From positions 99,326,001-99,390,000 of the forward strand of contig NC_086097.1 of the NCBI RefSeq assembly GCF_963921235.1: a stretch of 64,000 nucleotides of DNA, written 5' to 3'. The stretch is from Mobula hypostoma (lineage: Eukaryota). Positions 386-43,100 of the stretch are shown here, one piece after another (position 1 is the first letter of the stretch; every line of letters starts with the position of its first letter). A program made the position numbers and the translations under genes. The notes below the pieces were generated by a model. That model saw only the letters and a program-made list of their open reading frames with translations, was not told the DNA's origin and did no database searches.

Positions 386-804
386 CTATGGTATAACAAC
401 ACGTTAATCAGACCTTAGATATTACAACACTCTGCAGCACACTAGAAAAAATGTCATCTGATTAACTTTAGAATACAAACTCAAAGATATTTTAAAAAAT
501 AATTCTGTTGCACAATTCTTTTCCTGAAAATTCCTCATTCTGATGAGGATATAGACCTGTAATAGTTGAAGCAACAAGATTATATTAAAGTACAAGGTAT
601 AATAAATTATTTTAAAGATTACTAAAAAAAAGCTACAAAGAGTTAGTGATATAAATTACAATTTGATAGCAAGAGTAGATTACTTAGTTCTTTAAATTTG
701 CTGTCATTTAATAGGGTCATGGCGAATCTAATTATACCCTTAGTTACACACTACCATCTTGCCCCAATGATCATTTACTCCTTTATTTATATATTTTTAT
801 TCAG

Positions 805-1046
805 AAGTACTGTACAGCACAGTAACAGGCCCTTCCAGCTCATCAAGTCCGCACTGTCCAAATACACGCACACGACCAATTAACCTACTAATTCAAGTGT
901 GTTTGCACTGTGGAAGGAAACCGGAGCACTCAGAGAAAACCCATGTGGTCACGAGGAGAATGTACAAACTCCTTGCATACAGCGGAACGGAATTCAACCT
1001 GGTTTGCTGGCGCTGTAATAGCATTACACTAACCACTATGCTACCT
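805..1046 (-). mobile_element. tRNA-derived V-SINE (HE1-like)
   Basis: V-domain-like core (ggaaggaaaccggagcac...gaaaacccatgtggtcac...gtacaaactcc), degenerate tRNA head at the right end, CR1-like tail at the left end. Confidence 0.7.
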
Positions 1047-1278
1047 TGCCACCCCTTACTTATCAAGATTCAAAAGCTGAATCATGCTTTGAGGAAGATG
1101 TTCTCTAAAACTCTTTGGGAGAAAATGTTCATCATAGGCAACTCTTCATTTTAAACAATGATCATTAGTTCTGAATTATCTCACAAGAAGAAACATCCTC
1201 TCCACATCTCCCCTCAGGATCTTGCATATTTCAATCAAATTTCTTCTTAGCCTCAGCAGATACAGGCCTAAAAAGAAG

Positions 1279-2122
1279 GCAGGGAGAAGTTAAGATGGCA
1301 CTAAACGGCAACTCCTTTGCTTGCATCTCTGTAAACAACTTTATTTCTATCTTTGCTATCTCTTTTTTCCTTTTCAGGGTGTGGGGGGTTCTTTTGAAGA
1401 CCCTGATCTGGAGTTACACTCTGACTTCGGTTCATTATGGGAATGGGACCTGCTCTTAGGGCCTCAAGTCCAGCTGCTTTCTGATATCCCAAGGACGCAG
1501 CCTGGAAGATGAGCGCGCCTTCAGGGTTCCGGGATTTCATGGCTCTGGAGACATGCTGATTCTAGGCCGGTGCCCCTGACTGAAGTGTTATGGGAGAACA
1601 CGTAACATCAGGAGCAGTGGGTTAGCTGCTGGGGGTAGTCTGCCCAGAGAGCTGCGCCTTTTTGGTGCCAACTCTCTGGGTGCAGAGCTCGTAAAATGTG
1701 ACACAACGGACTCTTAACATAGTAAATCAGTGAGTTTTTTGTTATGTCTCTCCTCTTGCTGTGAAACAGGGATACCTCTTTTTCCCTTATTAGGGAGACA
1801 GAGAGAGCCTGTGATATGTCGAATTATCAGGTGAGTGATTAGTCTTTGGGGTACTGCACCTGTGTCTTTACTGATGCTTTGTTGCATGCTTGAGTGCTCG
1901 GTAGAGGGTGCTGATGCTTTTTTTGCCAGTGGGGTGGGGAGGGTTCGTTGCCTTGCTGCTGCTTGTGCTCGGGAGGGGGGAGCGGGGGGCTTTGGGATTC
2001 TAACGTTTTAACTGTCATTCATTCTTTGGGACACTCCTCTGTTTTCGTGGATGTCTGCAAAGAAAAAGAATTTCAGGATGTACATTGTATACATTTCTTT
2101 GACATTAAATGCACCTATTGAA
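1279..2122 (+). mobile_element. Unclassified non-coding interspersed repeat (probable non-autonomous LINE derivative)
   Basis: Begins aagatggc and ends with a LINE-like 3' end (tttcaggatgtacattgtatacatt...attaaa). No recognisable ORF. Confidence 0.35.
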
Positions 2123-2311
2123 CCTGTCAAACCTTGCCTCAAGGCAACCAACTTATTCTAGATAATAGTCTAGGAAATCTTTTGCTTCTAATGCATTAAT
2201 ATCTTTCCTGAATTAGAGAAAACAAAATTGCAGGCAGTATTCCTGATGTGATCTCAATAATGCCCTTTATAATGAAGCATACTTTATACTTTATTGTCTC
2301 CAAACAATTGA

Positions 2312-2822
2312 TACTAGAACGTACAATCATCACAGCGATATTTGATTCTGCACTTCTCACTCCCTGGATTACAAATCGATAGTAAATATTAAAAATTTAA
2401 ATTATAAATCATAAATAGAAAATAGAAAAATGGAAAGTAAGGTAGTGCAAAAAAAAAAGAGATGCAGATCCAGATATTTGGAGGGTACGGCCCAGATCCG
2501 GGTCAGGATCCGTTCAGCAGTCTTATCACAGTTGGAAAGAAGCTGTTCCCAAATCTGGCCTTACGAGTCTTCAAGCTCCTGAGCCTTCTCTCAGAGGGAA
2601 GAGGAACGAAAAGTGTGTTGGCTGGGTGGGTCGTGTCCTTGATTATCCTGGCAGCACTGCTCCGACAGCATGCGGTGTAAAGTAAGTCCAAGGACAGAAG
2701 ATTGGTTTGTGTGATGTGCTGTGCCGTGTTCACGATCTTTTGCAACTTCTTCCAGTCTTGGACAGGACAACTTCCATACCAGGTTGTGAGGCACCCTAGA
2801 AGAATGCTTTCTACAGTGCATA
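2312..2822 (-). mobile_element. Rex1/Babar-type LINE 3' fragment
   Basis: ORF 2503-2844 has CTVESIL..C.T.WYG, IIKD.THP...LF..LPS.RR.RS and NSFFP.VIRLLN, typical of the Rex1/Babar C-terminus. Confidence 0.8.
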
Positions 2823-2961
2823 ACCTCTCTAATTCTGTATTCAACTTCTACACAAGATACTGTATTCTATCATCCCCAATTATTTGCTGGAGCTCATCAT
2901 TCCCTCACCATTTAGACCAGATGCTGCTATTTTATTTTTTGAATTTCCAGAATGAAAAATG

Positions 2962-3183
2962 TCAGATTCTCGTCACTATCAGTAAGGAGTTTCTACGTTC
3001 TCCCTCTGACCACGTGGGTTTCCTTCAGTTGTTTCAGCTTCCTCTCACAGTCCAAAGATGTATCAGTTGGTAGGTTAATTGGTCATTGTAAACTGTCCCG
3101 TAATTAGGCCAGGATTAAATCAGGAGATTGCAGGGCAGCGTAGCTTGAAGGATTGTTCCATACTGTATCTCTAAATAAATAAA
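2962..3183 (+). mobile_element. V-SINE (HE1-like), degraded
   Basis: V-domain-like core gaccacgtgggtttcc...cacagtccaaaga...ggtaggttaattgg and a taaataaataaa tail. Confidence 0.6.
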
Positions 3184-4454
3184 GCAGTAAATTTTCCCAT
3201 TTGCTGGTTCTTGGCCCCTTTATTTAACCTATCACTATCCCATTGTAGTCTCCTCACATCCTCTACACAAGTTACTTTCCTATTTACCATTGCGTCATCA
3301 GTAAATTTAGCAACCCCACCCTTAGTGCCTTCATCCAAGAAATTCCCACTCAGACCATACAGTTCTTTATACATGAATCAAGTCACTATCTTCAGCTCAG
3401 ATCCACTGCTGCTCTGCAGCTTGACTAATAGCTTGAATTGGTCTCGAGGGCTAGGGTGAATCATGGAAAAAACAAAGCCGAGGACATTGGTAACTGCTCA
3501 GATCTACAAGTGGTCAAATCCTATTACCTAGAAGTGCAAAGAATATGGTTTCCTGGTTACAGCCAAGATAAAGCAGAAACTAGGAACATAGAAATGGCTC
3601 TATATTGAACATGAGAAAGATCTTGCTCATCAGGTGTGAAATGATCCCGATGTTAGGGTCCTCTTGCCATTGCACACAGAAGGGCTGTATTCTCTGTACA
3701 ACTGATGTGTGGGAAAGAAAAATTGATGCCATGCTGCTATAATGTAAATCTAATAAGCAAATTTAAGGATATGCTAGGTACAGTAAACACAGATGCACAT
3801 ACTGCATACATGCAGATAGTATTAAGAGCAATCAAAACTATGGGTGGATCTTCATATAGAAATTCACAGGTACAAGAAGAAAAAAAAAGGCTAATAAAAA
3901 ATTAGTAAATATGCCCAGACCAACCCTCAAAGTGGGAGTAGGAACTGCATGTTAGAGCAACGTACAATTGAAAATAAATTTATTATCAAAGGTCACTTAT
4001 ATTACTATATACTACCTTGTGATTCATTTTCTTGCAGGTATTTACAGGGAAAAACACCGTCTGCGTTAGATGATCAGTCGATCGGGACTTTGAGACTTTT
4101 TTTTACCGTGCCCATGGTCTGCTCTTTATCAAATTATGGTATTGCTTTGCATTGTTGTAACTATATGTTATAATTATGTGTGGTTTTGTCAGTTTTAGTC
4201 CTGGTTTGTCCTGTGTTTTTTTGTGATATCATTCTGGAGGAACATTGTATCATTTTTTAATGTATGCATTTCTAAATGACAATAAACAAGGACTGAGTGT
4301 CCTCATAATCTAATCTAAAATAAATAAAATAAAATTTTACAAGAAAACTACACATAGAAAGACAAAGGCTAACACCATTGTGCAAAAGACAAACTGTGCA
4401 AATAAAAATAATACTAAGAACATGAGCTCTAAAGAGTGCTTGAAAGTAAGCCTC

Positions 4455-19639: not shown

Positions 19640-20252
19640 TTGATTCAAGCAGATCTTTGATGTTCTTCGCAGTTGGCTTTCGGGCGGACCCTTTTATGTC
19701 TTCTATCCCGCTGTGGTCACCGACTGTGACCCCTCCGTTCTGGATTGTGACCGTTCTTCCGCGGTGAACCCGGCACCCAGGCAAGGGCGGACACACACAC
19801 CAGGTTCCCGCCGATCGTACCTTTTCACCCTGTGAGTCTATGGTCGGTTCCCTCGAACCAGACCTCCAAACTCCCACCAATTTGTGGGGGCACACCGCTC
19901 TTCCAGGGTCTCGTTATCTCATGGTGTCGTGGTGTGTGTGGTGCCTTAGCGAATCTGTTCTTTTTATCCCCCTGCTGGGGTATCGCCTGTCCATCAGACT
20001 TCAAACAGTTCAGGTTCAAAGCAACCGGTCTGTCAATATCTGAATTGTGTTTCTTCCTCGTTAATCTCTCTTATTAGCATTGTCTCCTTTATCTCTCTCT
20101 CATTAGCATCAATCTTCTGATAACTTGGTTTGTCATCACACCCCTATCCTTCAAAGGATTTTTACTGGGGTAAAAATTATAAATACATTATTAGATCCAC
20201 ACTAATATACAGGGTTATCAGCTATTCGGCGAATACAGAGAACTTTAACTTT

Positions 20253-21464
20253 TCAACACCTTGACAGACAGTCAGCAATCACATCGTCTGTTCCTTTTAT
20301 ATGTATTATTTTAATACCAAATTCCTGTAAGACCAGGCTCCAACTTAGCAACCTTTTGTTTTTATCCTTCATAGTGGCCAAAAACACTAATGGGTTGTGA
20401 TCAGTGTAAATTATCAGTGGTTTCCGTGCCAGACAAATATAACAAAGGTCGTCCCTCACAAACTTCACATTCTTTGGCAAGAGCTTAGTAAGCGGGAGGG
20501 TAATATCCGCAAAGTTTTTGCAAAACTTCTGATAGTACCCCACCATCCCCAAGAACCTTCTCAGGGCTCTCTTGTCTGTCGGGGTGGGGACTTCAGAGAT
20601 AGCCCACACCTTAGCCTGCATCGGAGCCAGCTGCCCCTGTCCAACCACAAATCCCATATAAGTGACCTTCGTGTGGCCGAATTCACTTTTTGCGAGGTTC
20701 ACTGTCAGGCTGGCTTCAAACAGCTGTTTAAACATTTCCACAATGTGCTCCTCCCACGTGTCACTCCAGACCACTAAATTGTCAATATACGCTTCTGCGT
20801 TCTTTAGCCCTTTTGTCACTGAATTAATCATCCTGTAGGAGTGTTGCTTACTAGGCTGACCTGATGTGACAACACCATGTACCGTCTCTTTGCATTGCCC
20901 CAGGACATCCGAACATATGCCTGCGTGCCGGTTAGTTAGCTTTATCAGCGGCTCGCTCTGTTCAGGGGTTAAGTGAGAGAACTCATCAGCAAAGTTGGCC
21001 AAAACAATAGAGTTCTCCCATTGGGTCGGCACCATACTTATCTTTTCAAAATGGGTTTTCCCCCTATCAGGTGGCACCCTAGCCTCATTAATTTTTGTGA
21101 TAACACCGACTAGGTCTGCTCGCTTATCGTGCCAAGTTGTTAACATATCAATAGGCTGTGTTGGCTCACGTCTACAATACTCAATAATATCCTCCCTCAT
21201 GCTCGGCCAGTAAAACTCTTTCATAATTCTATTGACTGTCTTCCTTACCCCAAAATGTCCACCGAGGGGTATCTTGTGGGCCAGGTTAAAAATCTCATCC
21301 CCATAAATTTTCAGCACTACCACCTGGTGCACCACCCCCCATTCCTCATCTGCGGGCACGGTACTTGGTCTCCATTTCCTCCTGAGTACTCCCTCCTTCA
21401 CATAATAGCCCACTGGCTCACTTTTTAATTCTGCTTCAGAGAGAGCTGTCTCCGTCAAAACCAT
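20253..21464 (-). pseudogene. Deleted pol of element A (integrase Zn-binding remnant, RT C-terminal half, RNase H tail)
   Basis: AHKIPLGGHFGVRKT...FYWP (IN HHCC region) precedes YIDNLVV, NLAKSEF, LRRFLGMVGYY, YTDHNPL and IADCLSR. Integrase core, RT N-terminal half and most of RNase H are absent. Confidence 0.85.
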
Positions 21465-21960
21465 CAGCTCCTCATCTCGTTCCTGTTCCTGTAAATTCTT
21501 TCCTCGCTAATGATAAATCTACCTCAACTCCCTCACTTCCTTCCGCTCTACTATGCTCCTTCTTCTCACTTTCTAACCCCTCCTGGTACAAGGCTGGTAA
21601 AAACATCTCAGCTAAATCTACATTCGCTTCGGCAGCCTTTCTGGACATGCGCCGAGTCACTGCGCAGACAGGATAAACCTGTGAGTCTATGGGCGGGGCC
21701 TCAATCCGGTAGGCTGGTTTGTCAGTTTTACTGCTGAGAACACATTTCCGCCGGTGAAGTCATTACCGAGTAAGACCACCACGATCCATCGGTAATTCGG
21801 GCCTCACCCCTATCGTGACCGGTCCGGAGACCAAGTCAGTTTTTAAGTGTATCTGGTGCAAAGGTACTGCTTCAGTCCCTTTCCCAATGCCCTTTATCAC
21901 ACTGACCTCCCCAGTCTCGGTCTCTGAACTAAAGTCTAAAACACTCCTTAAGATCAGTGA

Positions 21961-23298
21961 CTAACAAGCCTCAGTGTCTCTCCAGATCTGTACGGGAACC
22001 GGGCTTAACCCCTCCTTCATCGACACCAATCTGGCCGAAATAAACTTCTCACGCCCTTCCTGAACTTTATCAGACCTCTCCTCCCCTAGTGGTTTGTTTG
22101 CCAGCTCAATACAACCAGTCGGAATCGTTGTTTTTCCTTTTCCTGTCTCCTTCTTTGGGGCAAAGCACCTGGACGCAAAGTGACCGGCTTTCCCACAATT
22201 ATAGCATACGACCCCAGGAGACTTCCTACCAAACTGCTCCCGGTCATCCTTATCCTTCTCACTAGTCTCCGGCTTACTTTCTGGCTTTTCTGGTGGACTC
22301 TCTCCGCCCTCTTGACTACTCTTCTGATAGCTTTTACTCGGGGTAAACTTTGCTTTGTGTGTCAACGCGTACTCATCTGCTAACTTAGCAGTTGCGGCTA
22401 AGGTTTCTGCCTCTTTCTCATCTAGGTAGGGCCTCATACCTTCAGGGACACAACCTTTAAACTGCTCAATCAGTATTAGCTGTAGCAGTCTGTCATAATC
22501 TCCACTGACCCCTTTCAAGGCGCACCAACGCTCACAATACATCTGCATTTCACGGGCAAACTCTAAATACGTGCGGCCCCACTGCTTCCTCACATTCCGG
22601 AACCTCTGCCGGTATGCCTCCGGGACCAACTCATAAATCCTGAGTATCGCCTCTTTCACCACATCATACCTCTGGGCATCTTCTGCGGACAATGCCGAGT
22701 AAGCTTGCTGAGCTTTTTCTTTAAGTACGCTCTGAAGCAAAACAGCCCACTTATCCCTCGGCCAGTCCTGACTTGCAGTGACTTTTTCAAAATGTAGAAA
22801 GTACTGATCAACATCGGCCTCCTCAAATGGGGGAACCAGCCTAACCTCCTGGGTCACCCTGAACCCTCCACCTTGGTTCGGCATGGGGCCCTGCGCTAGC
22901 GTCATCCTTAACTTCTCCAGCTTAAATTCCCTTTCCCTCTGTTTCTCTCCCTCTTCTCGTTCTAACTGCCTGTCCCTCTCTTCTTGTTCCAGCTGCTTTA
23001 TTCTCTCTTCTCGTTCTAACTGCCTTACCCGGAACTCGTGCTCGAGTCTCAATTTTTCTATCTGCAGCTGCACCACCTCTCCACCAGGTTTGCTCATAGA
23101 TACCACCTCCAGCTCCCCTTGGGGAAACACACCTTCAGATACATAATGCTCAATGATAGCTCTGTGCATCTCCGCTCTCCTCATTGTCGGCTTCCCCTTA
23201 AAAAGATTCAACCGTTTGGCAACAGTTGCCAATTCAGATTTCCTGGCATCCTCTAATACCTCCAAGGTTGGCGGCTTTAGAAATTCCTCAATCTTCAT
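21961..23298 (-). CDS. Gag of element A (coiled coil, capsid-like region, CCHC knuckle), open for 445 aa
   Basis: LVPPFEE.DVD.YF.HFEK...W, LILIEQFK and CYNCGKAGHFASRC. Runs into a degenerate protease motif (IWRDTEA) followed by a stop. Confidence 0.85.
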   Translation of the reverse strand: MKIEEFLKPPTLEVLEDARKSELATVAKRLNLFKGKPTMRRAEMHRAIIEHYVSEGVFPQGELEVVSMSKPGGEVVQLQIEKLRLEHEFRVRQLEREERIKQLEQEERDRQLEREEGEKQREREFKLEKLRMTLAQGPMPNQGGGFRVTQEVRLVPPFEEADVDQYFLHFEKVTASQDWPRDKWAVLLQSVLKEKAQQAYSALSAEDAQRYDVVKEAILRIYELVPEAYRQRFRNVRKQWGRTYLEFAREMQMYCERWCALKGVSGDYDRLLQLILIEQFKGCVPEGMRPYLDEKEAETLAATAKLADEYALTHKAKFTPSKSYQKSSQEGGESPPEKPESKPETSEKDKDDREQFGRKSPGVVCYNCGKAGHFASRCFAPKKETGKGKTTIPTGCIELANKPLGEERSDKVQEGREKFISARLVSMKEGLSPVPVQIWRDTEAC

Positions 23299-23374
23299 TT
23301 CTGCTGTTTTCCCTTTCTTTCTTTCAGGAATTTTAACCCAATCAATTTACCCAGTCCCAAATTTGGCGTTCAAA

Positions 23375-25857: not shown

Positions 25858-27136
25858 ACACTACATATTCCATGTGCTAACCTGTGGAACAGTATCAAAA
25901 GCCATCTGGCAATTCAAATAACTGCACCTACTAATTTCTTCTAATCTACTGTATTCAATACAGTATATCCTCAAAGAACTTCAAAAGGTTAGTCAAATAC
26001 ATCTTTATAGTCACCTCTTTGTAAACATTGAAATGAAGATCATCAGACCCTTGAGATTTATCAGACCTAGCTTATTTCACAACATTTAAATCAAACTATA
26101 TCCAGATGTACATAAATAATGGCAGCCATACAAGTGAAGCCCTGCATGGCCTCTAAGGCAGCTGTCAGAAAAACAGCACTCCTGCCAGTCCTGTATGGCT
26201 TTAATATTGCACTGAAATGCCTACCTAGACCATGTGAGATTTCAATCCACATCATTCTATGTACACATGATGCCCTACTTAAAACTGATGCCAAAGAGTC
26301 AAAATATTAAGAGTCAAGATCAACACCAAAAGCAGATAAAATTAAGCTAAATAAATTCTGTAAGGCTTCCCCCAACTATCCAGCATGATAGACCTGCCAA
26401 GGCATTCAATGTCTCCAGGTGATAATGCCACCTACTATAATGAATTACCTTATTTATCTGCAAGATCCAGGATGACTTACTTCCACCCTAGTTTTGTGGA
26501 ATATGAGATGGTTGATGTTGCCAATGTGGCAACCGCACACTGTTCTGAAACGCAGTTAGTGCCAATAGGATAGTTTGTGAGCTGCCTGCTCCCTCTACTA
26601 CTTACTCTGGAACTCTTCTTGCTCCTAATGTGTAACTTTGAGTTTTTCAGCATTCCCTCAAAAGTTCCTTCTCAACTTTGAATAGTTATGTGTCACAGGA
26701 GTTAATGAAGATGCTATATTTCTTCAAAGGCCTTAAGCAAATCTTTGAAGCTTTTCCTCTACGCATCTGCTAATCCCTTCTAATGAAACCGAATATCTTT
26801 TTGAATGACTGCCAGTGGAGTGGCATCTATGCTCCACTGCAAAAACTGCTAAAGAAATGACAGGTATCTTTTTCTGAAGAACAATTCTTTTTTTTAAATC
26901 ATAATAAGCCAATAGGTTTCACGAAGTGCATTTTTAACCACGGGGCAAATACTCTCTGTGAACAAGGTTAAAAACTTGTTTTTCAGACACTCCTGGGCCC
27001 CGAAACAAGTATTTTTGAAACATCATCATAGTTGAAAATATTTGGCATAGCTGCCTTGCTATTTCAAGAATTCCTGGGTTATCTGTCAGAAACCAGAGTT
27101 TCGCTCATTCCTTTTGCTCATAGCCCTGGTGATTAC

Positions 27137-27363
27137 CTGATGAAGGTGGTCTTGCCGGTTGAGTATTGCCCAATAAGCAATACCATGGGCTTATTCTCGA
27201 AGTCAGCCTGCTCCAGAGCGGGCGAGTGGAACTGATGGAACTGGTAGTAATCCTCCAGGGGCTGCAGCCTCTTGTGGTACAGGGACCGCAGTCCATCGGA
27301 CACCGTCTCAAACACCATCGAGTCCTTCCCAGAGGCCTCAGAACCAGACAGCCAGCTGAACAT
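27137..27363 (-). CDS. EHD3: EHD-family ATPase, coding exon 1 (227 nt)
   Basis: MFSWL...FHSPALE.ADF.NKPMVLLIGQYSTGKTTFIR: EHD N-terminus and P-loop. ATG in gtaccATG context; donor AG|GTAATC at 27136. Confidence 0.95.
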
Positions 27364-27538
27364 GGTACCCTGTCGGGACTCCGGATCACCGTCACTGGCA
27401 AGCCCTCACCCTCTGTGACTCTGCTCTTGGTCCCTCAGACTCCAGCTCCCGGACCCAGTCCGAGCTTCAAACGCCGACACACTCTGGATACCTGTCCACT
27501 CCCTCCCCTCGGGACTCCGGGTCACTCACTGCCTCCTT

Positions 27539-28390: not shown

Positions 28391-29550
28391 CACTAAAGCC
28401 AAATAATTTGTTACTTTATTATTGAGGGATGTTGTCACCCTGTGACATGAATTAAAAATATGTTCATAATTTCAGAATTGGAATAAGATTTATAAGCACT
28501 GACCTATGTCATGGAATTTGTTGTTTTGTAACAGCAGTAAAGTGCAAAAGGGGGAATGCTATATGTTACAATAAAAAATAAATAGTGCAAAAGTGGAATA
28601 GAGTTCATGAGTTCAGGGACTGTTCAGAAGTCTGATGGCGGAAGAGAAGAGGCTGCTACTAAATGTTGACTCTGCATCTTCAGGCTCCTGTACCTCCTGC
28701 CTTATGGTGGTAATGAGAAGAGGGCCTGTCTAAGATGGTGTAAGTCCTCAATGTTGGATGCCACCTTTCTGAAGCATCACCGTTTGAAGATGTCCTTGAT
28801 GGTGCGGAGGTTTGTGCCTGAGATGGATCTGGCTGAGTCTACAAGCCTCTGCAGCCTCTTTCAATCCTCTGCATTGGAGCCTCCAGCCCAGACAGAGATG
28901 CGACCAGTCAAAATGCTCTCCATGCTACATCTGTAGAAACTAGGTAGTATCTTTGGTGGCATGCCAATTCTCTTCAAACTCCCAATGAAATACAGCTGCT
29001 GGCATGCCTTCTTTGTGATTGCCTCAATATGTTGTGCCCAGGATTGATCCTCTGAGATGTTGTTGCCCAGGAACTTACAGCTGCTAACCCTTTCCGCTAC
29101 TCACCGCTCAGTGAGGAGGACGTGTTTTCACAACTTCCCCTTTCTGAAATCCACAATTAAGTTTCTTGGTTTTGCTGACGTTGAGTTATTGTTGCAACAC
29201 CACTCAACCTACCAGTCTATCTGACCCCATATGCCTCCTCATCACCATCTCAGAATCAGAATCGGGTTTATTATCACTGGCATGTGACGTGAAATTTGTT
29301 AACTTAGCAGCAGCAGTTCAATGCAATACATAATATAGCAGAGAGAAAAAATGTAACAATAAATAAACAAGTAAATCAATTACATATATTGAATAGATTT
29401 TTTTAAAACGTGCTAAAACAGAAATACTGTATTTTTTTTAAAAGTGAGGTAGTGTCCAAAGCTTCAATGTCCATTTAGGAATCAGATGGCAGAAGGGAAG
29501 AAGCTGTTCCTGAATTGCTGAGTGTGTGCCTTCAGGTTTCTGTACCTCCT

Positions 29551-29823
29551 GTGTGTGGGTGGGAGTACTTGCTCACAGGGTTAGGGTGAAGCGTCTAGTG
29601 CAGTAGTGCTTGTAGTTAGTGCATGCTGTATGCCACATAATGCTCTCTGCTTGCAGCTATTGCCGCTGGCTAACCTGCTTAATAGAGGGTGAAAAGAGGG
29701 GCCTAGTGTGTAAGCCTCCTCCTGCCAGTACAGAGCCTCTCCACCACCAAGACTCCTGCAGTGCCTCCTCGGGGCCACACATGGAAACTGGGTATCTTAT
29801 GGTCCCAGGCTAAACTACAGGGG
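29551..29823 (+). ncRNA. HDV-like self-cleaving ribozyme (predicted)
   Basis: P1 GUGUGUG 29551-57 / CACACAU 29776-82 with G1.U wobble. P2 CCUGCAGU 29755-62 / ACUACAGG 29814-21 (7/8). P3 GCC/GGC with L3 UCCUCGG. P1.1 CC/GG (29783-84). P4 CUGGG/CCCAG. J4/2 GCUAA with candidate catalytic C29810. Confidence 0.8.
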
Positions 29824-31346
29824 ATCTCGGAGGAGCAGTGCCTGGTGCCCGTCAACCGCTGTCCAAGCTATGGGCAAATAGCCCCCCTGCATTGTGGTAT
29901 GTCTGTTGAGACAAGGCTAAGCGAGCACACCCTGACAGAAAAGCAATGCGCTGGCGGCGTGTAGTAGGCGGACCTCAACAGACCAAGGACCTGGCAGCCT
30001 CCTGCAGCCAAGATGTGGGACCGGTTGTCCTGGGATCACCCTTTCCACCGGGATTTACCTCATCATGGTGAAGATAGTGCTACTGGGGATGGCGCACTTT
30101 AAAATCTTTCTTGTGCAGGTCTCCACCTCTGAATCAGGAGGCTCCACGCAACCACCAAACTTCATAGGGAGCGGGTTCTGGAGCTGCAGTATGCAGACGA
30201 CTGTGCTCTTGTGACCCATACTCCGGAGGATCTTCAGTTTGGCCTTGCTGTGACGGTGAGAGCGCACAGCAGGCTGGGGCTGACTGTCAATACCACTGTG
30301 AGGGGATCCAGGAATGTCCCTATTAACTGTTTGAAGAGAGACAGAGAGAGGGTTATTTACCACCGATATGTTGCTTTTGAAAAGAGAGAGAGACGAAGAT
30401 TAACGGTTGGACTGTCACTTTAAGGCATTGGAAGTAACTTTGGATTTTTACTGAGTTTGGAGTTGGAGACAGCACCGAGCAGCTCGTAAGTTGCTATGGT
30501 GACCGACAGCAGGTTGTTGATGTTACTTCCAAGGACTGGTTGCCTGCTTGTGCATTTCTTCACAGACAAAGGAAGGAGGGACTCTTTGAATGACAGGTGA
30601 TGCTCAGCCTGGTGAAATAAATGGGAGGTCAGATGATACAGACCTCAGACACATGATCTGGACACTGAATGAGCAGTGTTGTGCCCGCAGAGAAAGTGGG
30701 TTTTGGAGGATCGATTAGGCGGATCAATCCAAATTGCTATTCCAGCGGTGATGAAGGGGTTGACTGGTGGGGAGTTGTCTATGTGTCCACCCTTGCCGGG
30801 GTGATAGCTCCACCACAGGAAAACCGGTCCCCCTGGTTAAAGTCACAGTCAGTGACTTGTAAAGGATTTCAGAGGACGACGAGAAGATCGACGGCAACAG
30901 CTCACCTGAAGACTCAACTCTCTCTCTCTCTCTCTCTCCCCATCACTATTTAACTCAATACCACGAACTGAACTTTACTCAACATCGTAAGACTGTATCT
31001 TTTTACCCCTAGACTTAAACAAGCTTGGTTATCATACATACATTTCCACACTTACTGATTTACGTACTTTTATATATATTCATTGTTAACCTGTGTGATT
31101 TATTTACATTGATATTACTGTATTGCGTAGTTACTAATAAATATTATTAGTAGTTTATAGCAATACGAGACTCCAAAGTGGTTTCTATTTCTGCTGGTTT
31201 CTTTATCCCCGTCACGGGGTACGTGACATTAATTGGGGCCTGCGTCCGCGATATGAACAAATTGGTCGGGAGGCTGGTTTGAATTGATTGGGGGAAAATC
31301 CCTTTTGATTTGGACTTTGAATTGGTTGTGTGGAAAAACAGCAAAA

Positions 31347-32465
31347 ATGGATGTTAGGGACTTTCTGAAATCACCAGACCTGATGACTTTGAAGTTAACT
31401 AAAAAGTATGAGTTGCGGGACATTGCTAAGAAATTGAAAATTGAGGTAAAGAAGGGTATGACTAAGGTAGAAATTCAAAGAAAAATAGCTGAATGTTATA
31501 TAGATAAGGGAACATTTGATGAGGAGGTGTTAGAGTTGTTCGTGGAAGGTGAACCTACTGAGGATGAGCTTCAGCTTCTGTTGGAAGTATTAAAGAGGGA
31601 GCATGAATTGAAATTAAAACAGCTGGAGAGAGAGGCTGAAGGAGCAGAAAGGAGGAGGGTCTGTGAGGCTAGAGAGGCAGAGAAACAGAGAGAGGAGGCA
31701 GAAAGAAAGAGACAGCTCGAGAGGGAGAAATGGCAACGTAAAGATCACGTGGCAGAAAGGCAGAGACAGTTTAAAAGGGAGAGGTTGCAGCAAAGAGGTT
31801 TAGTGTCAGACCCTGATCATTTTTACAGCTTGGAGGAGCTAGTTTTGTGTGATGAATTGAAAAGTTGTGTTCCTGATGAGGTCGGGGCATACCCAGTGGC
31901 AGAGGATGCCCCTACCCTGCAGGGGTCTGTTGAGAAAGCAGACAAAGAAGTTTTAAACCACGAGGTTGAGTTTACTCCAGAAAAGAGTTTGCCAGAGGGT
32001 AGCTGGGAGGTTCGAGATGACCTTGAATTTCAAACTGGGACAAGTGATGACAGCCCAGAAAAGGCAGTTGTCCTGATTGAATGTGTTCAGGTTGTTGAAT
32101 TACCTGTGGGTTCACAGGATTCTGAACCTTATGTTGAGACTCAGTTGAAGTCTGAGGTGCCTGACTTGGTTGGAGAGGAATACAGTTTTTGTGTGTCAGA
32201 TGGGCTTGGTTCAGTGAGTAAGGGGTTAACCTTGGTACCAGTGGAACGTGAGGATTCTCAGTCATTTGTAGTAGACCGTGTTTTAAAAGCTGGTGAGGTC
32301 AATGTTGCTGGAAGTAATGGCAAAAGTGCTGTTCCTGGACTTTTGGATAAAGTGATGGAAAAGGTTGGATTGATTGCGCAACCTTTGACCCTGCTTGCAG
32401 GACAAAGGCCTGCTGAGACAGGATGCGCTAGTTTGTTGGATTTTGTTTGGACGTTTGGAAGTTAA
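31347..32465 (+). CDS. Gag-derived ORF of element C, internally deleted
   Basis: N-terminus MDVRDFLKSP..LKLTKKYELRDIAKKL and the coiled coil are homologous to element A gag. Most of the capsid-like region and the CCHC knuckle are missing. Confidence 0.65.
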   Translation: MDVRDFLKSPDLMTLKLTKKYELRDIAKKLKIEVKKGMTKVEIQRKIAECYIDKGTFDEEVLELFVEGEPTEDELQLLLEVLKREHELKLKQLEREAEGAERRRVCEAREAEKQREEAERKRQLEREKWQRKDHVAERQRQFKRERLQQRGLVSDPDHFYSLEELVLCDELKSCVPDEVGAYPVAEDAPTLQGSVEKADKEVLNHEVEFTPEKSLPEGSWEVRDDLEFQTGTSDDSPEKAVVLIECVQVVELPVGSQDSEPYVETQLKSEVPDLVGEEYSFCVSDGLGSVSKGLTLVPVEREDSQSFVVDRVLKAGEVNVAGSNGKSAVPGLLDKVMEKVGLIAQPLTLLAGQRPAETGCASLLDFVWTFGS

Positions 32466-32769
32466 GCACCTGCAAAGTCATGCTGTTATTCAGAGTGATG
32501 TTATGGAGAGGAAGAAGAATTGTTGTGGTTTTGGAGTGGAAGTTGCTATGGATACAAGTCGAAGTATAGGTCATAATCAGATGGGTAGTTTATTTGGTCT
32601 CTTTCATAATGTATACCTGATTCTGATCAGCTTGATGATGGTACTGAGTTTGATAAACAATGGAGGCATGTTGACAGCTCTCCAAGGTAAGAGTGTTTCA
32701 GCAATTCAGCTGATGAGCAAAGTTGCTATTGAGACTTGTGATAGAAAAACCAAAGGTTTAAATTATTAT

Positions 32770-34720
32770 GATGTGTCACAGACTTTTCTACCTTCCAGAT
32801 TTCATCAGGACTTAAAGGGTAGTACAATTGATAAGGGTAAGGTGTATAAGAAAGGTTTGTCTTTATTGAGGAAGGATTTTAAAGAGGAACAGAAGCGAGA
32901 TTCTGGAATGGTGACTTTAAGGGAGATAGCTCTCACAGGAGAGGAGGTTCAGAGAGAGTCAGTGGGACGTTACCTTAAAGATGGGATGTTGATGAGGAAA
33001 TGGAGACCAGCCACAATGCCTGCAAGTCACGTGGTGGTTCCGAAAGGTTACAGGGCTGAAATTTTAAACATGGCTTACAGTATGCCTTTAGGTGGACATC
33101 ATTGTGTGAGAAATGAGGAAAATGGGAACGAGGGGGTTCCCCTCCTTTTATTTATTGTTGGAGATTCGATTCAGAAGGCAGTGAAGGGTAACTTGTTGGA
33201 ACCTGAGCAGTTACAGGCCAAAAGGACCTTTGACCCTACTCAGAGAACTCTGGAAGGAATTTAGGAAGCTCTGTGTCCTTGCTAAGGAAAGTTTGCAAAA
33301 TGGTCGAGTCAAAATACGGCACTTGTTTACCAGAATTGCAGCTGGGAGAATGGTTATAGGACAAAATGGAGTCGTGAAATCTGATAATGGAATGGAAAGG
33401 CATGTTTGCCCACTGAATCTAGATGCATCCAGATGTCAGAATTCCATTGTTTTGGAAAATATTACTGATAAGGTCCACCAGTTGGATCCAAAGCCAAAAA
33501 AACAAGTAAAAGGACTAATTGGTGTTTTGAAATGGTGCACAGGTGCAGTGCATCACATCATTATGAATTTAGCCCAGCCTATGAAATGGTATCTTCACAG
33601 AGTGAGCTTTGAGGAAAGTAAAAGGGTTGAACAAGGAATTAGAAACAGGAAAGAACAAAGAAAGAGAATGGATGACTGTATTGACAGAGTGGGGAAGGCT
33701 AAATACCTTATTAAGATTGACTTGTTAAAAGGTTAACGGGGTGTTCATTTAACAGAGAGGGCTAAAGAGATATCAGCATTTGTGACACCGTCTAGACTGT
33801 ATGAGTGCAATATTTTACACTTCGGGATGAAGAATGCTCTAGAAACATTTCAAAGAGTGATCAATTCTGTGATTGGAGGGTTAGGAAGCACAGGAGTTCA
33901 TATGAATGATTTAGTGGTCTGGAATGACACGTGGGAAGAGCATATTGCAGCTGTAGGAAAACAGTTTGACAGACCTCCCAAGGCCACTCTTACTGTGAAC
34001 CTCGCTAAAAGTGAATTTGGCCATGCCACAGTTACATATCTGGGTTATGTGGTGGGCCAAAGCCAACTGGCTTCTGTACAGGCCAAGGTTCAAGCTATTG
34101 CTGAAGTTCCTGTTCTGACCGACAAGAAAGCTTTGAGAAGGGTTTTAGGGATGGTTGGGTATTATCATAGGTTATGTAAGAACTTTGCTGACATCACTCT
34201 TCCCCTAACAAAGCTCCCAGGGGAAAGTGAAAGATTTGAATGGAGTGACCTTTGCCAGGAGGCATTTAAACGTCTGGAAACCATCCTGTGTTATCATCCT
34301 GTGCCCAAAGCACCGGATTTCTCAAAACCATTCTCAATCGCAACAGGTATTAGTGACGAAGCTGCTGGGGCAGTACTGTTACAGAAGGGAGTGGATGACA
34401 TTGAACATCCAGTAGCTTACTTCTCAAAGAGCTTTAATGTACACCAGAAAAATTATTCAACTGTTGAAAAGGAATTACTAGCACTTATTCTGGCTTTACA
34501 ACATTTTGAGGCCTATGATCAGAGACCTCAAAACCTTTCTGTTGCTCAGAGACCACTTGTGGTCTACAAGGGTTATAATCTGTTGATGTTTCTAACTAAG
34601 ATGAAGGATAAGAATAGGAGGTTGTTAAATTGGAGTCTAGTATTGCAGGAAGGTGACTTAAAAATCAACTATGTGAAAGGTACGGACAATATCATAGCTG
34701 ATTGCTCATCCCGATGTTAA
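32770..34720 (+). pseudogene. Degenerate pol of element C (IN remnant, RT, RNase H)
   Basis: LMRKWRP...AYSMPLGGH precedes KIDLLKG*, FGMKNA, HMNDLVV (YIDD lost), HPVAYFSK, YSTVEKELLA and IADC.SRC. Confidence 0.85.
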
Positions 34721-36964
34721 GTTGGAAACTGCAACCATTTTTGCCTTGTCATCTGATGGTTTTTTTCCCTGTATTGTTTAAAACCCTGTGATGGATATTT
34801 TTTTAAAAATCGTCTTCGACAACTTTTTTTCCCTGAGGAAGGGGTGTGTGAGGGGATCCAGGAGTGTCCCTATTAACTGTTTGAAGAGAGAGAGAGGGTT
34901 ATTTACCACCGATATGTTGCTTTTGAAAAGAGAGAGAGACGAAGATTAACGGTTGGACTGTCACTTTAAGGCATTGGAAGTAACTTTGGATTTTTACTGA
35001 GTTTGGAGTTGGAGACAGCACCAAGCAGCTCGTAAGTTGCTACAGTGACCGACAGCAGGTTGTTGATGTTACTTCCAAGGACTGGTTGCCTGCTTGTGCA
35101 TTTCTTCACAGACAAAGGAAGGAGGGACTCTTTGAATGACAGGTGATGCTCAGCCTGGTGAAATAAATGGGAGGTCAGATGATACAGACCTCAGACACAT
35201 GATCTGGACACTGAATGAGCATTGTTGTGCCCGCAGAGAAAGTGGGTTTTGGAGGATCGATCAGGCGGATCGATCCAAATTGCTATTCCAGCGGTGATGA
35301 AGGGGTTGACTGGTGGGGAGTTGTCTATGTGTCCACCCTTGCCGGGGTGATAGCTCCACCACAGGAAAACCGGTCCCCCTGGTTAAAGTCACAGTCGGTG
35401 ACTTGTAAAGGATTTCAGAGGATGACGAGAAGATCGACGGCAACAGCTCTCCTGAAGATTCAACTCTCTCTCTCTCCATCACTATTCAACTAAATACCAC
35501 GAACTGAACTGAACTTTACTCAACATCGTAAGACTGTATCTTTTTACCCCTAGACTTAAAGAAGCCTGGTTATCATACATACATTTCCACACTTACTGAT
35601 TTACGTACTTTTATATATATTTATTGCTAACCTGTGTAATTTATTTACATTGATATTACTGTATTGCATAGTTACTAATAAATATTAGTAGTAGTTTATA
35701 GCAATACGAGACTCCAAAGTGGTTTCTATTTCTGCTGGTTTCTTTATCCCCGTCACGGGGTACGTGACACCACCAAGACAGAAGTGGTTTGCCAGTGGAG
35801 TACCAGTGTCCCACCCACTCTACCTGCCTTCACTGTTGGTGATGAAAAGCTGTCAGTAGTGCCATCTTTCAAATATCTTGGGAGCATTCTGTCTGAGGAT
35901 AGTGGCATTGACAACAACACCCAGAGCCACATTAAAGAGGCATCAGCTGCCTTTGGGAGACTTCAATGTAGAGTCTTTCAGAACAGGAGCCTTCGTCCCT
36001 CCACAAAGGTCGTCGTAAACCAAGTGGTCTGTGTCACCACCCTCCTTTACAGCTGTGAAGCTTGGGTAACCTACAGCCGTCACGTCAAGTCCTTGGAGCG
36101 CTTCCAGATAAGCTGCCTCCAGCGCATCCTGGGAATCACCTGGCGTGAGCTGGTGCCTCACACTGAAATACTTGTAAAGACCAACTGCAGAAGTATTGAG
36201 GCCATGATCACCCAGCGTCAGCTGCAGTGGCTGGGGCATGTGATAAGGATGCCCCCGTGTCGGCTACCCCGCAGAGTGTTATACGGACAGCTACATCATG
36301 GTCAAGGCTCAGCTGGGGGGGCCGAAGAAGCACTATAAGGATCAGATGAAGAATGCTTTAAGGAAGTGCAAGATTAGATCCAAGGGCCTGGAGGAGGTTG
36401 CTGCTGACCGTACCATTTGACAACAGCTGTGTAGGGACGGGGTTCGTATTCTGGAGATGGAAAGAACAACCAGAAGACAGCAGAAGAGAGCCAGGAGAAA
36501 TGTAGCCATGGGTTGCCACTACTACCACATATACATGTCCCACCTGCAATAGAGATTGTGGGTCCAGGATAGGACTGTATAGTCATCAAAGATCTCACTA
36601 TTAAAGGAGTGGACATCGTCATCGGATTTTGATGGACAACCAAAGAAGAACCTCCTACCTGATGGTAACGGTGAGAAAAGGGCATGCCCTGGGTGCTGGA
36701 GGCCCTTAATAATGGACGCTGCCTTTTTAAGGCACCGCTCCCTAAAGATATCCTTGATACTTTGTAGGCTAGTGCCCAAGATGGAGCTGACTAGATTTAC
36801 AACCTTCTGCATCTCCTTTCGGCAGAATCTGAAATTCTGCCAGTAACAGTAGTGTCATCAGCAGATTTGCAGATATCATTTGAGTTGTGCCTCATGACAC
36901 AGTCAGTGTAGCAAGAGTAGAGCAGTGGGCTAAGCATACATTTTTGAGCTGCACCCATATCTAC

Positions 36965-38236: not shown

Positions 38237-39812
38237 AAACAACAGGAATTCTGCAGATGCTGGAAATTCAAGCAACATACATCAAAGTTGCTGGTGAACG
38301 CAGCAGGCCAGGCAGCATCTATAGGAAGAGGCGCAGTCGACGTTTCAGGCCGAGACCCTTCGTCAGGACTAACTGAAGGAAGAGTGAGTAAGGGATTTGA
38401 AAGCTGGAGGGGGAGGGGGAGATGCAAAATGATAGGAGAAGACAGGAGGGGGAGGGATGGAGCCGAGAGCTGGACAGGTGATAGGCAGAAGGGGATACGA
38501 GAGGATCATGGGACAGGAGGTCCGGGAAGAAAGACGGGGGGGGGTGACCCAGAGGATGGGCAAGAGGTATATTCAGAGGGACAGAGGGAGAAAAAGGAGA
38601 GTGAGAGAAAGAATATGTGCATAAAAAAGAGTAACAGATGGGGTACGAGGGGGAGGTGGGGCCTAGCGGAAGTTAGAGAAGTCAATGTTCATGCCATCAG
38701 GTTGGAGGCTACCCATACGGAATATAAGGTGTTGTTCCTCCAACCTGAGTGTGGCTTCATCTTTACAGTAGAGGAGGCCGTGGATAGACATGTCAGAATG
38801 GGAATGGGATGTGGAATTAAAATGTGTGGCCACTGGGAGATCCTGCTTTCTCTGGCGGACAGAGCGTAGATGTTCAGCAAAGCGGTCTCCCAGTCTGCGT
38901 CGGGTCTCACCAATATATAAAAGGCCACCTCGGGAGCACCGGACGCAGTATATCACCCCAGTCGACTCACAGGTGAAGTGATGCCTCACCTGGAAGGACT
39001 GTTTGGGGCCCTGAATGGTGGTAAGGGAGGAAGTGTAAGGGCATGTGTAGCACTTGTTCCGCTTACACGGAAAAGTGCCAGGAGGGAGATCAGTGGGGAG
39101 GGATTGGGGGGACGAATGGACAAGGGAGTTGTGTAGGGAGCGATCCCTGCGGAATGCAGAGAGAGTGGGGGAGGGAAAGATATGCTTAGTGGTGGGATCC
39201 CATTGGAGGTGGCGGAAGTTACGGAGAATAATATGTTGGACCCGGAGGCTGGTGGGGTGGTAGGTGAGGACCAGGGGAACCCTATTCCTAGTGGGGTGGT
39301 GGGAGGATGGAGTGAGAGCAGATGTACGTGAAATGGGGGAGATGCGTTTAAGAGCAGAGTTGATAGTGGAGGAAGGGAAGCCCCTTTCTTTAAAAAATGA
39401 AGACATCTCCCTCGTCCTAGAATGAAAAGCCTCATCCTGAGAGCAGATGCGGCGGAGACGGAGGAATTGCGAGAAGGGGATGGCGTTTTTGCAAGAGACA
39501 GGGTGAGAAGAGGAATAGTCCAGATAGCTGTGAGAGTCAGTAGGCTTATAGTAGACATCAGTGGATAAGCTGTCTCCAGAGACAGAGACAGAAAGATCTA
39601 GAAAGGGGAGGGAGGTGTCGGAAATGGACCAGGTAAACTTGAGGGCAGGGTGAAAGTTGGAGGCAAAGTTAATAAAGTCAACGAGTTCTGCATGTGTGCA
39701 GGAAGCAGCGCCAATGCAGTCGTCGATGTAGCGAAGGAAAAGTGGGGGACAGATACCAGAATAGGCACGGAACATAGATTGTTCCACAAACCCAACAAAA
39801 AGGCAGGCATAG
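38237..39812 (-). mobile_element. Penelope-like element (Neptune type), 5'-truncated
   Basis: Open 374-aa frame with RYIDD (RT), Cys linker CKRNKCYTC and GIY-YIG (VIY...YIGET). 12-bp TSD cttggataactt (38225-36, 39813-24). Confidence 0.93.
38335..38370 (-). ncRNA. Minimal type I hammerhead ribozyme in Penelope pseudo-LTR
   Basis: AGUC-CUGACGA-AGGgucucggCCU-GAAA-C-GUC-GACU on the minus strand. Confidence 0.75.
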
Positions 39813-40123
39813 CTTGGATAACTTGCTCATCTTCAAAATAGAGCTGTTATCTTTTATGTCCAAGTGCAAAGACATACAGGACTTTAATTGAATGCTTTAT
39901 TTCAACATTTCCCTATTAGGCAATCTAGTGCTAACTCTGCACCACATTCAACAGTGATGCACTGGAGTGTTAGGTTAGATTTAAGTGCTCATTGAAATCC
40001 ACAGCCATTTGAGATTAGCACCAACCCATTTAACCACAGTTTACTTACATCATGGACACAACTCTTACAATTTCCTTTGTTGTCTTCAGCAGGTAATTTC
40101 CCTTGCAGTTAAGTGACTTTTCT

Positions 40124-43100
40124 ATCCCAGACCCTTCCACACCTTCGGAACACTTCCTTCGCCGTCTGTAATGGTCCTACCCGTTATTTCATCCTCCGTC
40201 GGATTCACGCATGCAATCGCCGTTTTTTTGACTTTGTCATGTTAGGCAAAGTTTGCAAGATCCTACATCTATGGACTCCAGAGCCTGCTGGCCATGAAAC
40301 TAGCAGGCATGAACTTCAGATTGCCTCTGCCGTTGATCTCGCTGGCTCCAACACCTCAGGGCATATTCAAAACCCGGACTCCAGCAACGAGCATGGACAC
40401 ATTCAAAGTGATTGCGCAACCACCAACTGCGACTCCAGCCTTGAACTCCAGGCTGGGTCTTTATGTGCTGCTGTTGTGACTCCTGTCTCCCCTTCCCGCA
40501 CCAATACTCTGCAATCCCATCTCCTTCAGATCCCATCATCAGCTCCTGGGCCCTCAGAGGCTCCATCTTCCTCTCACCCCAACCCTCCCTTCTCCATTGA
40601 CACCCTCAGCCTCCCCCCTCCCCCCTCTGATCCCAGCTCTCATCCGTGCCGGGTCTTTACCATCCCCTCTGACCTTCAACTGTCGGAGGCAGAACGCTCT
40701 GTCCTCAGTAAGGGCCTCACCTTTGTCCCCCTTCGCCCACACCTCAGCGAGTTCCGTGTTCGCCACGATGCGGAACTCTTCTTCCGCCGTCTCTGTGCCT
40801 ACTTCTTCGGCAAGGACTCTTCCACCCCCACCGATGACCCCTTCTCCTGTCTTCAACCCTCCTCTTCTTCATGGACACCCCGCTCTGGTCTTCTGCCTGC
40901 TCTGGATCTCTTTATTGCTAACTGCCGACAGGACATCAACCGTCTCGACTTCACCGCACCTTGTCCCCATTCCAACCTCACTCCTTCAGAATGCTCTGCT
41001 CTCCACTCCCTCCGCACTAATCCTAACCTTATTATTAAACCCGCCGATAAGGGGGGTGCTGTTGTAGTCTGGCACACTGACCTCTACCTTGCCGAGGCAT
41101 AGCGACAACTCGCGGATACCTCCTCTTATTTACCCCTCGATCGTGACCCCACTAAGGAGAACCAGGCCATTGTCTCCTACACCATCACCAACTTTATCCG
41201 CTCAGGGGATCTCCCGTCCACTGCTACCATCCTTATAGTTCCCACACCCTGCACTTCCCGTTTCTACCTCCTACCCAAGATCCACAAACCTGCCTGTCCT
41301 GGCCGACTTATTGTCTCAGCTTGCTCCTGCCCCACCGAACTCGTTTCTGCATACCTCGACACGGTTTTATCACCCCTTGTTCAATCCCTTCTGACCTATG
41401 TTCGTGACACTTCTCACGCTCTTAAACTTTTCGATGATTTTAAGTTTCCCGGCCCCCACCGCTTTATTTTCACCATGGATGTCCAGTCCCTATATACTTC
41501 CATCCCCCATCAGGAAGGTCTCAAAGCTCTCCGCTTCTTTTTGGATTCCAGACCTAATTAGTTCCCCTCTACCACCACTCTGCTCCATCTAGCGGAATTA
41601 GTCCTTACTCTTAATAATTTCTCCTTTGGCTCCTCCCACTTCCTCCAAACTAAAGCTGTAGCTATGGGCACCTGTATGGGTCCTAGCTATGCTTGCCTTT
41701 TTGTTGGCTTTGTGGAACAATCTATGTTCCATGCCTATTCTGGTATCTGTCCCCCACTTTTCCTTCGCTACATCGACGACTGCATTGGCGCTGCTTCCTG
41801 CACACATGCAGAGCTCGTCGACTTTATTAACTTTGCCTCCAACTTTCACCCTACCCTCAAGTTTACCTGGTCCATTTCCGACACCTCCCTCCCCTTTCTA
41901 GATCTTTCTGTCTCTGTCTCTGGAGACAGCTTATCCACTGATGTCTACTATAAGCCTACTGACTCTCACAGCTATCTGGACTATTCCTCTTCTCACCCTG
42001 TCTCTTGCAAAAACGCCATCCCCTTCTCGCAATTCCTCCGTCTCCGCCGCATCTGCTCTCAGGGTGAGGCTTTTCATTCTAGGACGAGGGAGATGTCCTC
42101 CTTTTTTAAAGAAAGGGGCTTCCCTTCCTCCACTATCAACTCTGTTCTTAAACGCATCTCCCCCATTTCACGTACATCTGCTCTCACTCCATCCTCCTGC
42201 CACCCCACTAGGAATAGGGTTCCCCTGGTCCTCACCTACCACCCCACCAGCCTCCGGGTCCAACATATTATTCTCCGTAACTTCTGCCACCTCCAACGGG
42301 ATCCCACCACTAAGCACATCTTTCCCTCCCCCACTCTCTCTGCTTTCCGCAGGGATCGCTCCCTACGTGACTCCCTTGTCCATTCGTCCCCCCCATCCCT
42401 CCCCACTGATCTCCCTCCTGGCACTTATCCTTATAAGCGGAACAAGTGCTACACATGCCCTTACACTTCCTCCCTTACCACCATTCAGGGCCCCAAACAG
42501 TCCTTCCAGGTGAGGCGACACTTCACCTGTGAGTCGGCTGGGGTGATATACTGCGTCCGGTGCTCCCGATGTGGCCTTTTATATATTGGCGAGACCCGAC
42601 GCAGACTGGGAGACCGCTTTGCTGAACACCTATGCTCTGTCCGCCAAAGAAAGCAGGATCTCCCAGTGGCCACACATTTTAATTCCACATCCCATTCCCA
42701 TTCTGACATGTCTATCCACGGCCTCCTCTACTGTAAAGATGAAGCCACACTCAGGTTGGAGGAACAACACCTTATATTCTGTCTGGGTAGCCTCCAACCT
42801 GATGGCATGAATATCAACTTCTCTAACTTCCGCTAATGCCCCACCTCCCCCTCGTACCCCATCCGTTATTTATTTTTATACACACATTCTTTCTCTCACT
42901 CTCCTTTTTCTCCCTCTGTCCCTCTGAATATACCCCCTGCCCATCCTCTGGGACCCCCCCCCCTTGTCTTTCTTCCCGGACCTCCTGTCCCATGATCCTC
43001 TCGTATCCCTTTTGCCTATCACCTGTCCAGCTCTTGGCTCCATCCCTCCCCCTCCTGTCTTCTCCTATCATTTTGGATCTCCCCCTCCCCCTCCCACTTT

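Follow-up and report, generated by a model that had tools for sequence, protein, structure and literature searches.

Inspection of the window, the whole stretch of 64,000 nucleotides of Mobula DNA analyzed here, confirmed a candidate HDV-type ribozyme in the first 273 bases of a copy of an RTE retrotransposon on the forward strand. The predicted cleavage-site nucleotide of this fold, G1 (G29551), is at the same time base 1 of the element. Very probably, the RNA of the parent element would have been cut free from read-through transcripts immediately before G1; target-primed reverse transcription would then have copied it, with G1 ending up next to the target-site duplication (TSD).

Predicted fold of the 5′ end

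The pairings can be read directly from the sequence. The 5′ strand of P1 (GUGUGUG, 29551–29557) faces CACACAU at 29776–29782, which is followed by the two G of P1.1 (the whole block being 29776–29784), and gives a helix of 7 bp with a G1·U pair, within the 6 to 7 bp counted from G1 that characterize HDV-like ribozymes. The order of the nested double pseudoknot is present as well. P2 is formed by 29753–29762 and 29814–29823, and P3 with its loop (29763–29775) consists of 3 bp (GCC 29763–29765 with GGC 29773–29775) and the 7-nt L3 UCCUCGG. P1.1 comprises the two pairs of C29767 and C29768 with G29783 and G29784, and the P4 hairpin (29788–29808) is closed by CUGGG (29788–29792) and CCCAG (29804–29808). 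J4/2 (29809–29813) reads GCUAA, in agreement with the HDV-like consensus GCNAA, and holds at the expected place C29810, the putative catalytic base, a role that we assume from established knowledge of HDV. Every element of the HDV fold claimed in an earlier note on this DNA was found. P2, which had been listed as present, stands as a helix, yet a C29759·A29817 mismatch had been overlooked; the helix also contains one U·G pair, and 9 of its 10 pairs remain. At the mismatched position, 25 of 30 copies of the family have A and five have G.

A search with a descriptor of the fold, suggested in the earlier note, returned the 29551 site as the unique match in the window, and no match was obtained on either strand of 500 Markov-simulated windows, with or without the P1 requirement. 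A chance likeness of a GT-rich element start to the HDV fold might be suspected, because P1 is a GU repeat, GTGTGTG recurs within J1/2 of many copies and Rfam gave no ribozyme match for region 29000–30500 or for the core by itself, the site matching neither the curated models RF00094 and RF02682 nor any drz-Agam model. However, seven of eight tested matches to the same core with a short J1/2 reached HDV-type Rfam models at E < 1, all below the gathering score, and the long J1/2 insertion is thus the likely reason for the Rfam miss. The empty simulated windows together with the covariation described below led us to reject chance resemblance, which we regard as extremely improbable. Rfam thus overlooks the family, a naturally occurring variant with a long J1/2. 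Rfam likewise assigned no ribozyme family to the related sequences L137, L141, L133, L075 and L043. In viral contigs the core pattern had no match, and a search of the Mobula genome for versions of the core with an alternative P1 or an alternative L3 yielded one mutated copy and none, respectively.

Insertion boundary and 5′ ends of the family

The insertion boundary of the window copy was observed directly. On the forward strand, the TSD ACCTCCT is found at 29544–29550, within a high-copy host repeat, and again at 36650–36656 after the (GAA)n tail. The unbroken target, which occurs 4169 times genome-wide (control pattern: 0), has a single ACCTCCT that was duplicated at insertion, which places the first inserted base exactly at G29551. 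The position of G1 directly 3′ of the TSD, reported in the earlier note, was borne out by this comparison.

The genome searched comprised 3.48 Gb. The 5′ 791 bases as query gave 1010 candidates, of which 40 were scored, 34 perfect matches to the 30-base core are present, and a query with the 3′ end gave 1288 candidates. Full-length copies measure about 4.2 kb, are 92 to 96% identical to their majority sequence and carry one APE-RT frame of 1082 codons, a (GAA)n tail and TSDs. The Pfam domains of relatives are PF03372/PF14529 and PF00078 only. RTE elements have a single ORF with APE and RT but no RNase H, a length of 3 to 4.5 kb, a short 3′ UTR with a tandem-repeat tail, and TSDs. Judged by its build against these features, the element is classed as an RTE-type non-LTR retrotransposon; the RTE identity proposed earlier is supported by the single APE-RT ORF, the (GAA)n tail and the TSDs. 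The closest named proteins (P0005, P0008 and P0012) come from teleost fishes and are 67 to 75% identical over the RT of the fragment L043. For a cartilaginous fish as host, such an identity would be high, and horizontal transfer is possible.

The 5′ ends of the copies pile up at G1. Among 30 copies found by similarity, the commonest base was shared by 9 to 16 copies across the 10 columns before G1 and by 21 to 30 copies from G1 on. The bias of a similarity-found set was avoided by using 24 core-pattern matches outside the loci already collected. Eleven of these start at G1, two of them inside GT repeats and one with its start assigned from the context, over an internal deletion; among the other 13, five start 2 to 4 nt from G1 and eight are truncated at positions 13 to 208. 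In all, 16 of the 24 begin within 4 nt of G1, which answers in the affirmative the question raised in the earlier note whether other copies start at the same G. In 23 copies from both sets in which the 3′ end was available, a TSD of 10 to 35 bp abuts G1 in eight and is separated from it by one extra base in three; two have 6 to 9 extra bases at the junction and 10 show no clear TSD. As a putative ribozyme, the family contributes a vertebrate RTE case in which the predicted cut site is cleanly recorded in the genome.

Every helix and every core base is intact in five of the 30 copies, the window copy among them, and each core base is retained in the majority of copies. So few intact copies are expected, since the copies have decayed, and such decay gives no covariation within the family. 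In a minor variant (L006, L008 and L013) the P1 strand is identical, and the sequence behind it is reduced by 4 nt. Seven copies (L102, L106, L110, L111, L112, L118 and L044) begin inside or beside GT microsatellites, and in such cases the flank offers alternative P1 5′ strands.

Covariation across lineages

A scan of metagenome contigs with the core pattern gave 48 matches, 42 of which showed neither a LINE ORF nor a similar UTR and were excluded. The remaining six (L061, L069, L071, L074, L075 and L083) resemble the 5′ UTR of the family and have a LINE ORF downstream. The covariation set consisted of eight sequences from six lineages, including two of the family's own copies, and its statistics ignore relatedness. 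In this set 93.1% of the cells pair, and two-sided changes were observed in five of 20 pairs, four in P2 and one in P4. The covariation score was 0.229 as compared to 0.138 after shuffling; none of 500 shuffles scored as high, and slid partners reached at most 0.164. Pair 7 of P1 is G-C in the window copy and C-G in L071 and L083. The invariance of P3, L3, P1.1 and J4/2 across the lineages is no evidence, because these elements were fixed by the search pattern. P1 of L069, L074 and L075 was left out of the P1 covariation: in L069 the 5′ strand lies 345 nt upstream in unalignable sequence and may be due to chance, L074 has no P1 strand within the 270 nt available, and L075 offers several candidates. 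The covariation of P1 and P2, named in the earlier note as a check, is thus seen across lineages at P1 pair 7 and in P2, and also in P4.

Many of the contigs without a LINE ORF (L052–L099, minus the six LINE-linked ones) carry compact HDV-like ribozymes with a short J1/2. One of them, L091, carries two together with a weak RAGATH-11 match.

The J1/2 domain

J1/2 (29558–29752) spans 195 nt and had been called unusually long. Its length stands, but it is not unique, as the ribozyme of silkmoth R2 has a portion of about 250 nt of R2 in J1/2, according to the accessible sections of PMC3774820. A P1.2-like helix next to P1 (29558–29565 with 29737–29745) would close the domain; it was predicted in eight of nine folded copies of the family. 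A closing helix of different sequence was likewise predicted in L071 and L083, and none in L061. Inside the domain two conserved helices are kept, with two-sided changes in four of 18 pairs. The predicted folding of J1/2 did not differ significantly from shuffled sequences (z of 0.63 for the window copy and −2.5 to +2.4 elsewhere). The domain also holds a variable GTAGTG(C/T)A repeat. In a model without pseudoknots and with the copy's own flank, a rival hairpin was predicted in which the flank and the P1 5′ strand pair with 29574–29579; because of this hairpin, the window copy may cut poorly in its own context.

Probable release of the element RNA

By analogy with known HDV-like ribozymes, we infer read-through transcription, cleavage, a catalytic C and a pinching role of J1/2. 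The RNA of the parent element would be transcribed within whatever host transcript ran through it, would fold into the HDV-type nested double pseudoknot and would cut itself before G1, with C29810 as the presumed catalytic base. The long J1/2 would fold back, the helix adjoining P1 and the extended P2 holding P1 and P2 together. Reverse transcription of the cut RNA from its (GAA)n end would then yield full-length copies that begin at G1 directly after the TSD. Release by self-cleavage fits the parent element and not the deleted and interrupted window copy.

The fold may instead be a relic of an ancestor that cleaved, the ribozyme of this family having been weakened and the 5′ end being set by an internal promoter, or the fold may serve as a protective or translation element. 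A promoter-defined start would likewise give a fixed 5′ end, and the 5′ UTR of about 900 nt has room for a promoter. A weakened ribozyme would also be in line with the P2 mismatch of most copies, whereas the relatives L069 and L075 have C-G, and with the hairpin predicted at the P1 5′ strand. However, the 5′ ends fall on exactly the base predicted by the fold, a coincidence not to be expected of a promoter, and the core bases are all retained in most copies, in which P2 keeps nine of its 10 pairs. We consider the relic improbable and favor release of the parent RNA by self-cleavage.

A related head on distant LINEs

With L075, L061, L071, L083 and L074 the family shares a head of about 300 nt that extends from the middle of J1/2 through the core to a conserved UTR domain. 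The identity of this head to the window family amounts to 87% for L075, 80% for L061, 73% for L071, 62% for L083 and 57% for L074. L075 is a sister with a protein 75% identical to that of the window family. The endonucleases of L061, L071, L083 and L074, each of which is represented by a single metagenome contig, are only 25 to 31% identical to the window lineage and to one another. The protein tree holds unnamed relatives only, and the ESM Atlas gave generic APE-RT names alone for L074. Ingi elements are defined by a single ORF with APE, RT and RNase H. The closest full-length relatives of L071 (including P0167, 76% identical) carry PF00075, and the named ones are molluscan; judged by these relatives, as its own contig reaches only the start of the RT, L071 appears Ingi-like.

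These identities raise an even chance that the ribozyme and the adjoining 5′-UTR domain form a portable head of about 300 nt that was exchanged between LINE clades, and they suggest such an exchange at least for L061 and L071. The contigs could instead be chimeric: each is a single contig, and the junction in L061 coincides with the UTR motif common to both, a place at which assembly could have fused two elements. For L074 and L083, strong selection rather than exchange could account for the heads. Relatives of the L061 protein in the Mobula genome are about 50% identical to it; eight loci were read, four of which reach a common 5′ head that shows no similarity to the head of the window family. 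A conserved 5′ head of about 400 nt with several hairpins was found upstream of the ORF in L136, L137, L139 and L141, members of an RTE-like family related to the L061 protein; in this head neither an HDV core nor a match to an Rfam ribozyme was detected. A second family in the genome, non-coding and about 700 nt long (L124–L135; 57 exact motif matches, 12 read), carries a homologous HDV-like head that is 70 to 74% identical to L071 and 69 to 72% identical to the window family. It has an 8-nt L3, a GCUGA linker, a covaried P2 and an RTE-like 3′ end, and the 5′ strand of its P1 appears mismatched or reduced in length.

Relation to known ribozymes and 5′-UTR domains

That RTE and Baggins elements can begin with an HDV-like ribozyme has been published (Webb 2009; Ruminski 2011; as reported in the accessible sections of PMC6765202 and PMC5786205), and the earlier note was right to treat the occurrence of such ribozymes on RTEs as known. 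The published ribozymes share with the window family the fold and the place, base 1 of a non-site-specific RTE, as well as a conserved downstream and a varied upstream sequence. The family is an addition to this class and ordinary in kind. The portions of the literature searched mention neither this RTE family nor its Mobula host, nor any RTE of a cartilaginous fish with an HDV-like ribozyme, nor the exchange of ribozyme heads between autonomous LINE clades; the lists or supplements of Ruminski 2011 and Webb 2009 may include the family or its sister.

As far as the available text of PMC4908430 describes it, drz-Agam-2-1 of the mosquito also has a large J1/2 closed by a P1.2 helix and an extended P2, a build that speeds the ribozyme. 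In contrast, J1/2 of the window ribozyme is multibranched and no stabler than its shuffled versions, and drz-Agam models do not match it. R2 ribozymes, in the sections of PMC3774820 cited above, share the HDV fold, a long J1/2 and non-templated bases at some 5′ junctions. R2, however, inserts site-specifically by means of a restriction-like endonuclease, and its cut often lies upstream, within the 28S sequence, whereas P1 of the window family is wholly element-encoded and its insertions are dispersed and have TSDs. The twister T-variants on Perere-3 RTEs resemble the window family in their role at the 5′ end and in the TSD beside the cut site but belong to another ribozyme class, and there the TSD forms part of P1 (PMC8501958, in part).

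In its accessible sections, Kojima 2018 (PMC5786205) describes a conserved RTE 5′-UTR domain common to SINEs, Ingi-3_AC and R4-1_ADi and proposes a SINE as its source in Ingi-3_AC, without tying the domain to a shared ribozyme. The stretch after the window ribozyme resembles the 23-bp motif quoted there, and in both cases the domain is also present on an Ingi-like element, L071 for the window family. In contrast to the SINEs, the block shared by the window family includes the ribozyme and part of J1/2. If heads were indeed swapped, this would explain why the conserved domain recurs in the middle of the 5′ UTR in RTE, Ingi and R4, as it would follow the shared ribozyme, and a LINE could take over from another clade a module for expression independent of a promoter. 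The UTRs of RTE and Vingi elements also serve as gene-writing templates (PMC13708176), for which a 5′ ribozyme head would matter in practice.

Translation start of the family

The AUG start of L075 and L069 is absent in 16 of 16 aligned copies of the family, most of which have an out-of-frame UUG with an additional base and a stop behind it, and in none of 15 copies does an in-frame AUG precede the first endonuclease motif. The region of the lost AUG lies about 900 to 1000 nt into the element (L031–L049). Upstream of the first Met, codons 21 to 76 keep 51 of 56 residues relative to L075, with 18 synonymous changes; the selection on these codons may predate the loss of the AUG. The start assigned to P0001, 82% identical over the RT, is this internal Met as well. 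At the first endonuclease motif there is a CUG in good context. Either a near-cognate start or mobilization in trans would fit the missing AUG, and the ribozyme head may drive a non-AUG start; ribozyme-aided translation has been proposed for the HDV-like class (accessible part of PMC6765202).

Anatomy of the window copy and its surroundings

Downstream of the ribozyme, all on the forward strand, the remaining 5′ UTR with the conserved RTE 5′-UTR domain (29824–30132) ends at an internal deletion of about 2.5 kb, by which family positions 648–3190 are missing at 30132/30133. A fragment of the RT ORF follows (30133–30296, family positions 3191–3354). The ORF is then interrupted by a later insertion, a Gypsy-like LTR element (30297–35769) with two LTRs of about 930 bp (about 30297–31228 and 34847–35769), a 4-bp TSD (CCAC) and broken ORFs of its own. 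The 3′ part of the RTE ORF, a short 3′ UTR and the (GAA)n tail occupy 35770–36649. With the internal deletion and the LTR-element insertion, this copy is no longer an active transposon; its ribozyme core ranks among the best preserved.

At 27133–27405, the minus strand carries the initial coding exon of an EHD gene (Pfam EHD_N). The RTE lies about 2 kb upstream of it on the opposite strand, with the ribozyme-headed element oriented away from the exon. A second Gypsy-like LTR element is present at about 20250–23350 on the minus strand. By their appearance, we take the ORFs at 38663–39826 and 41562–42836 to be Penelope-like (RT/GIY-YIG-type), and several ORFs elsewhere in the window are presumably CR1-like.
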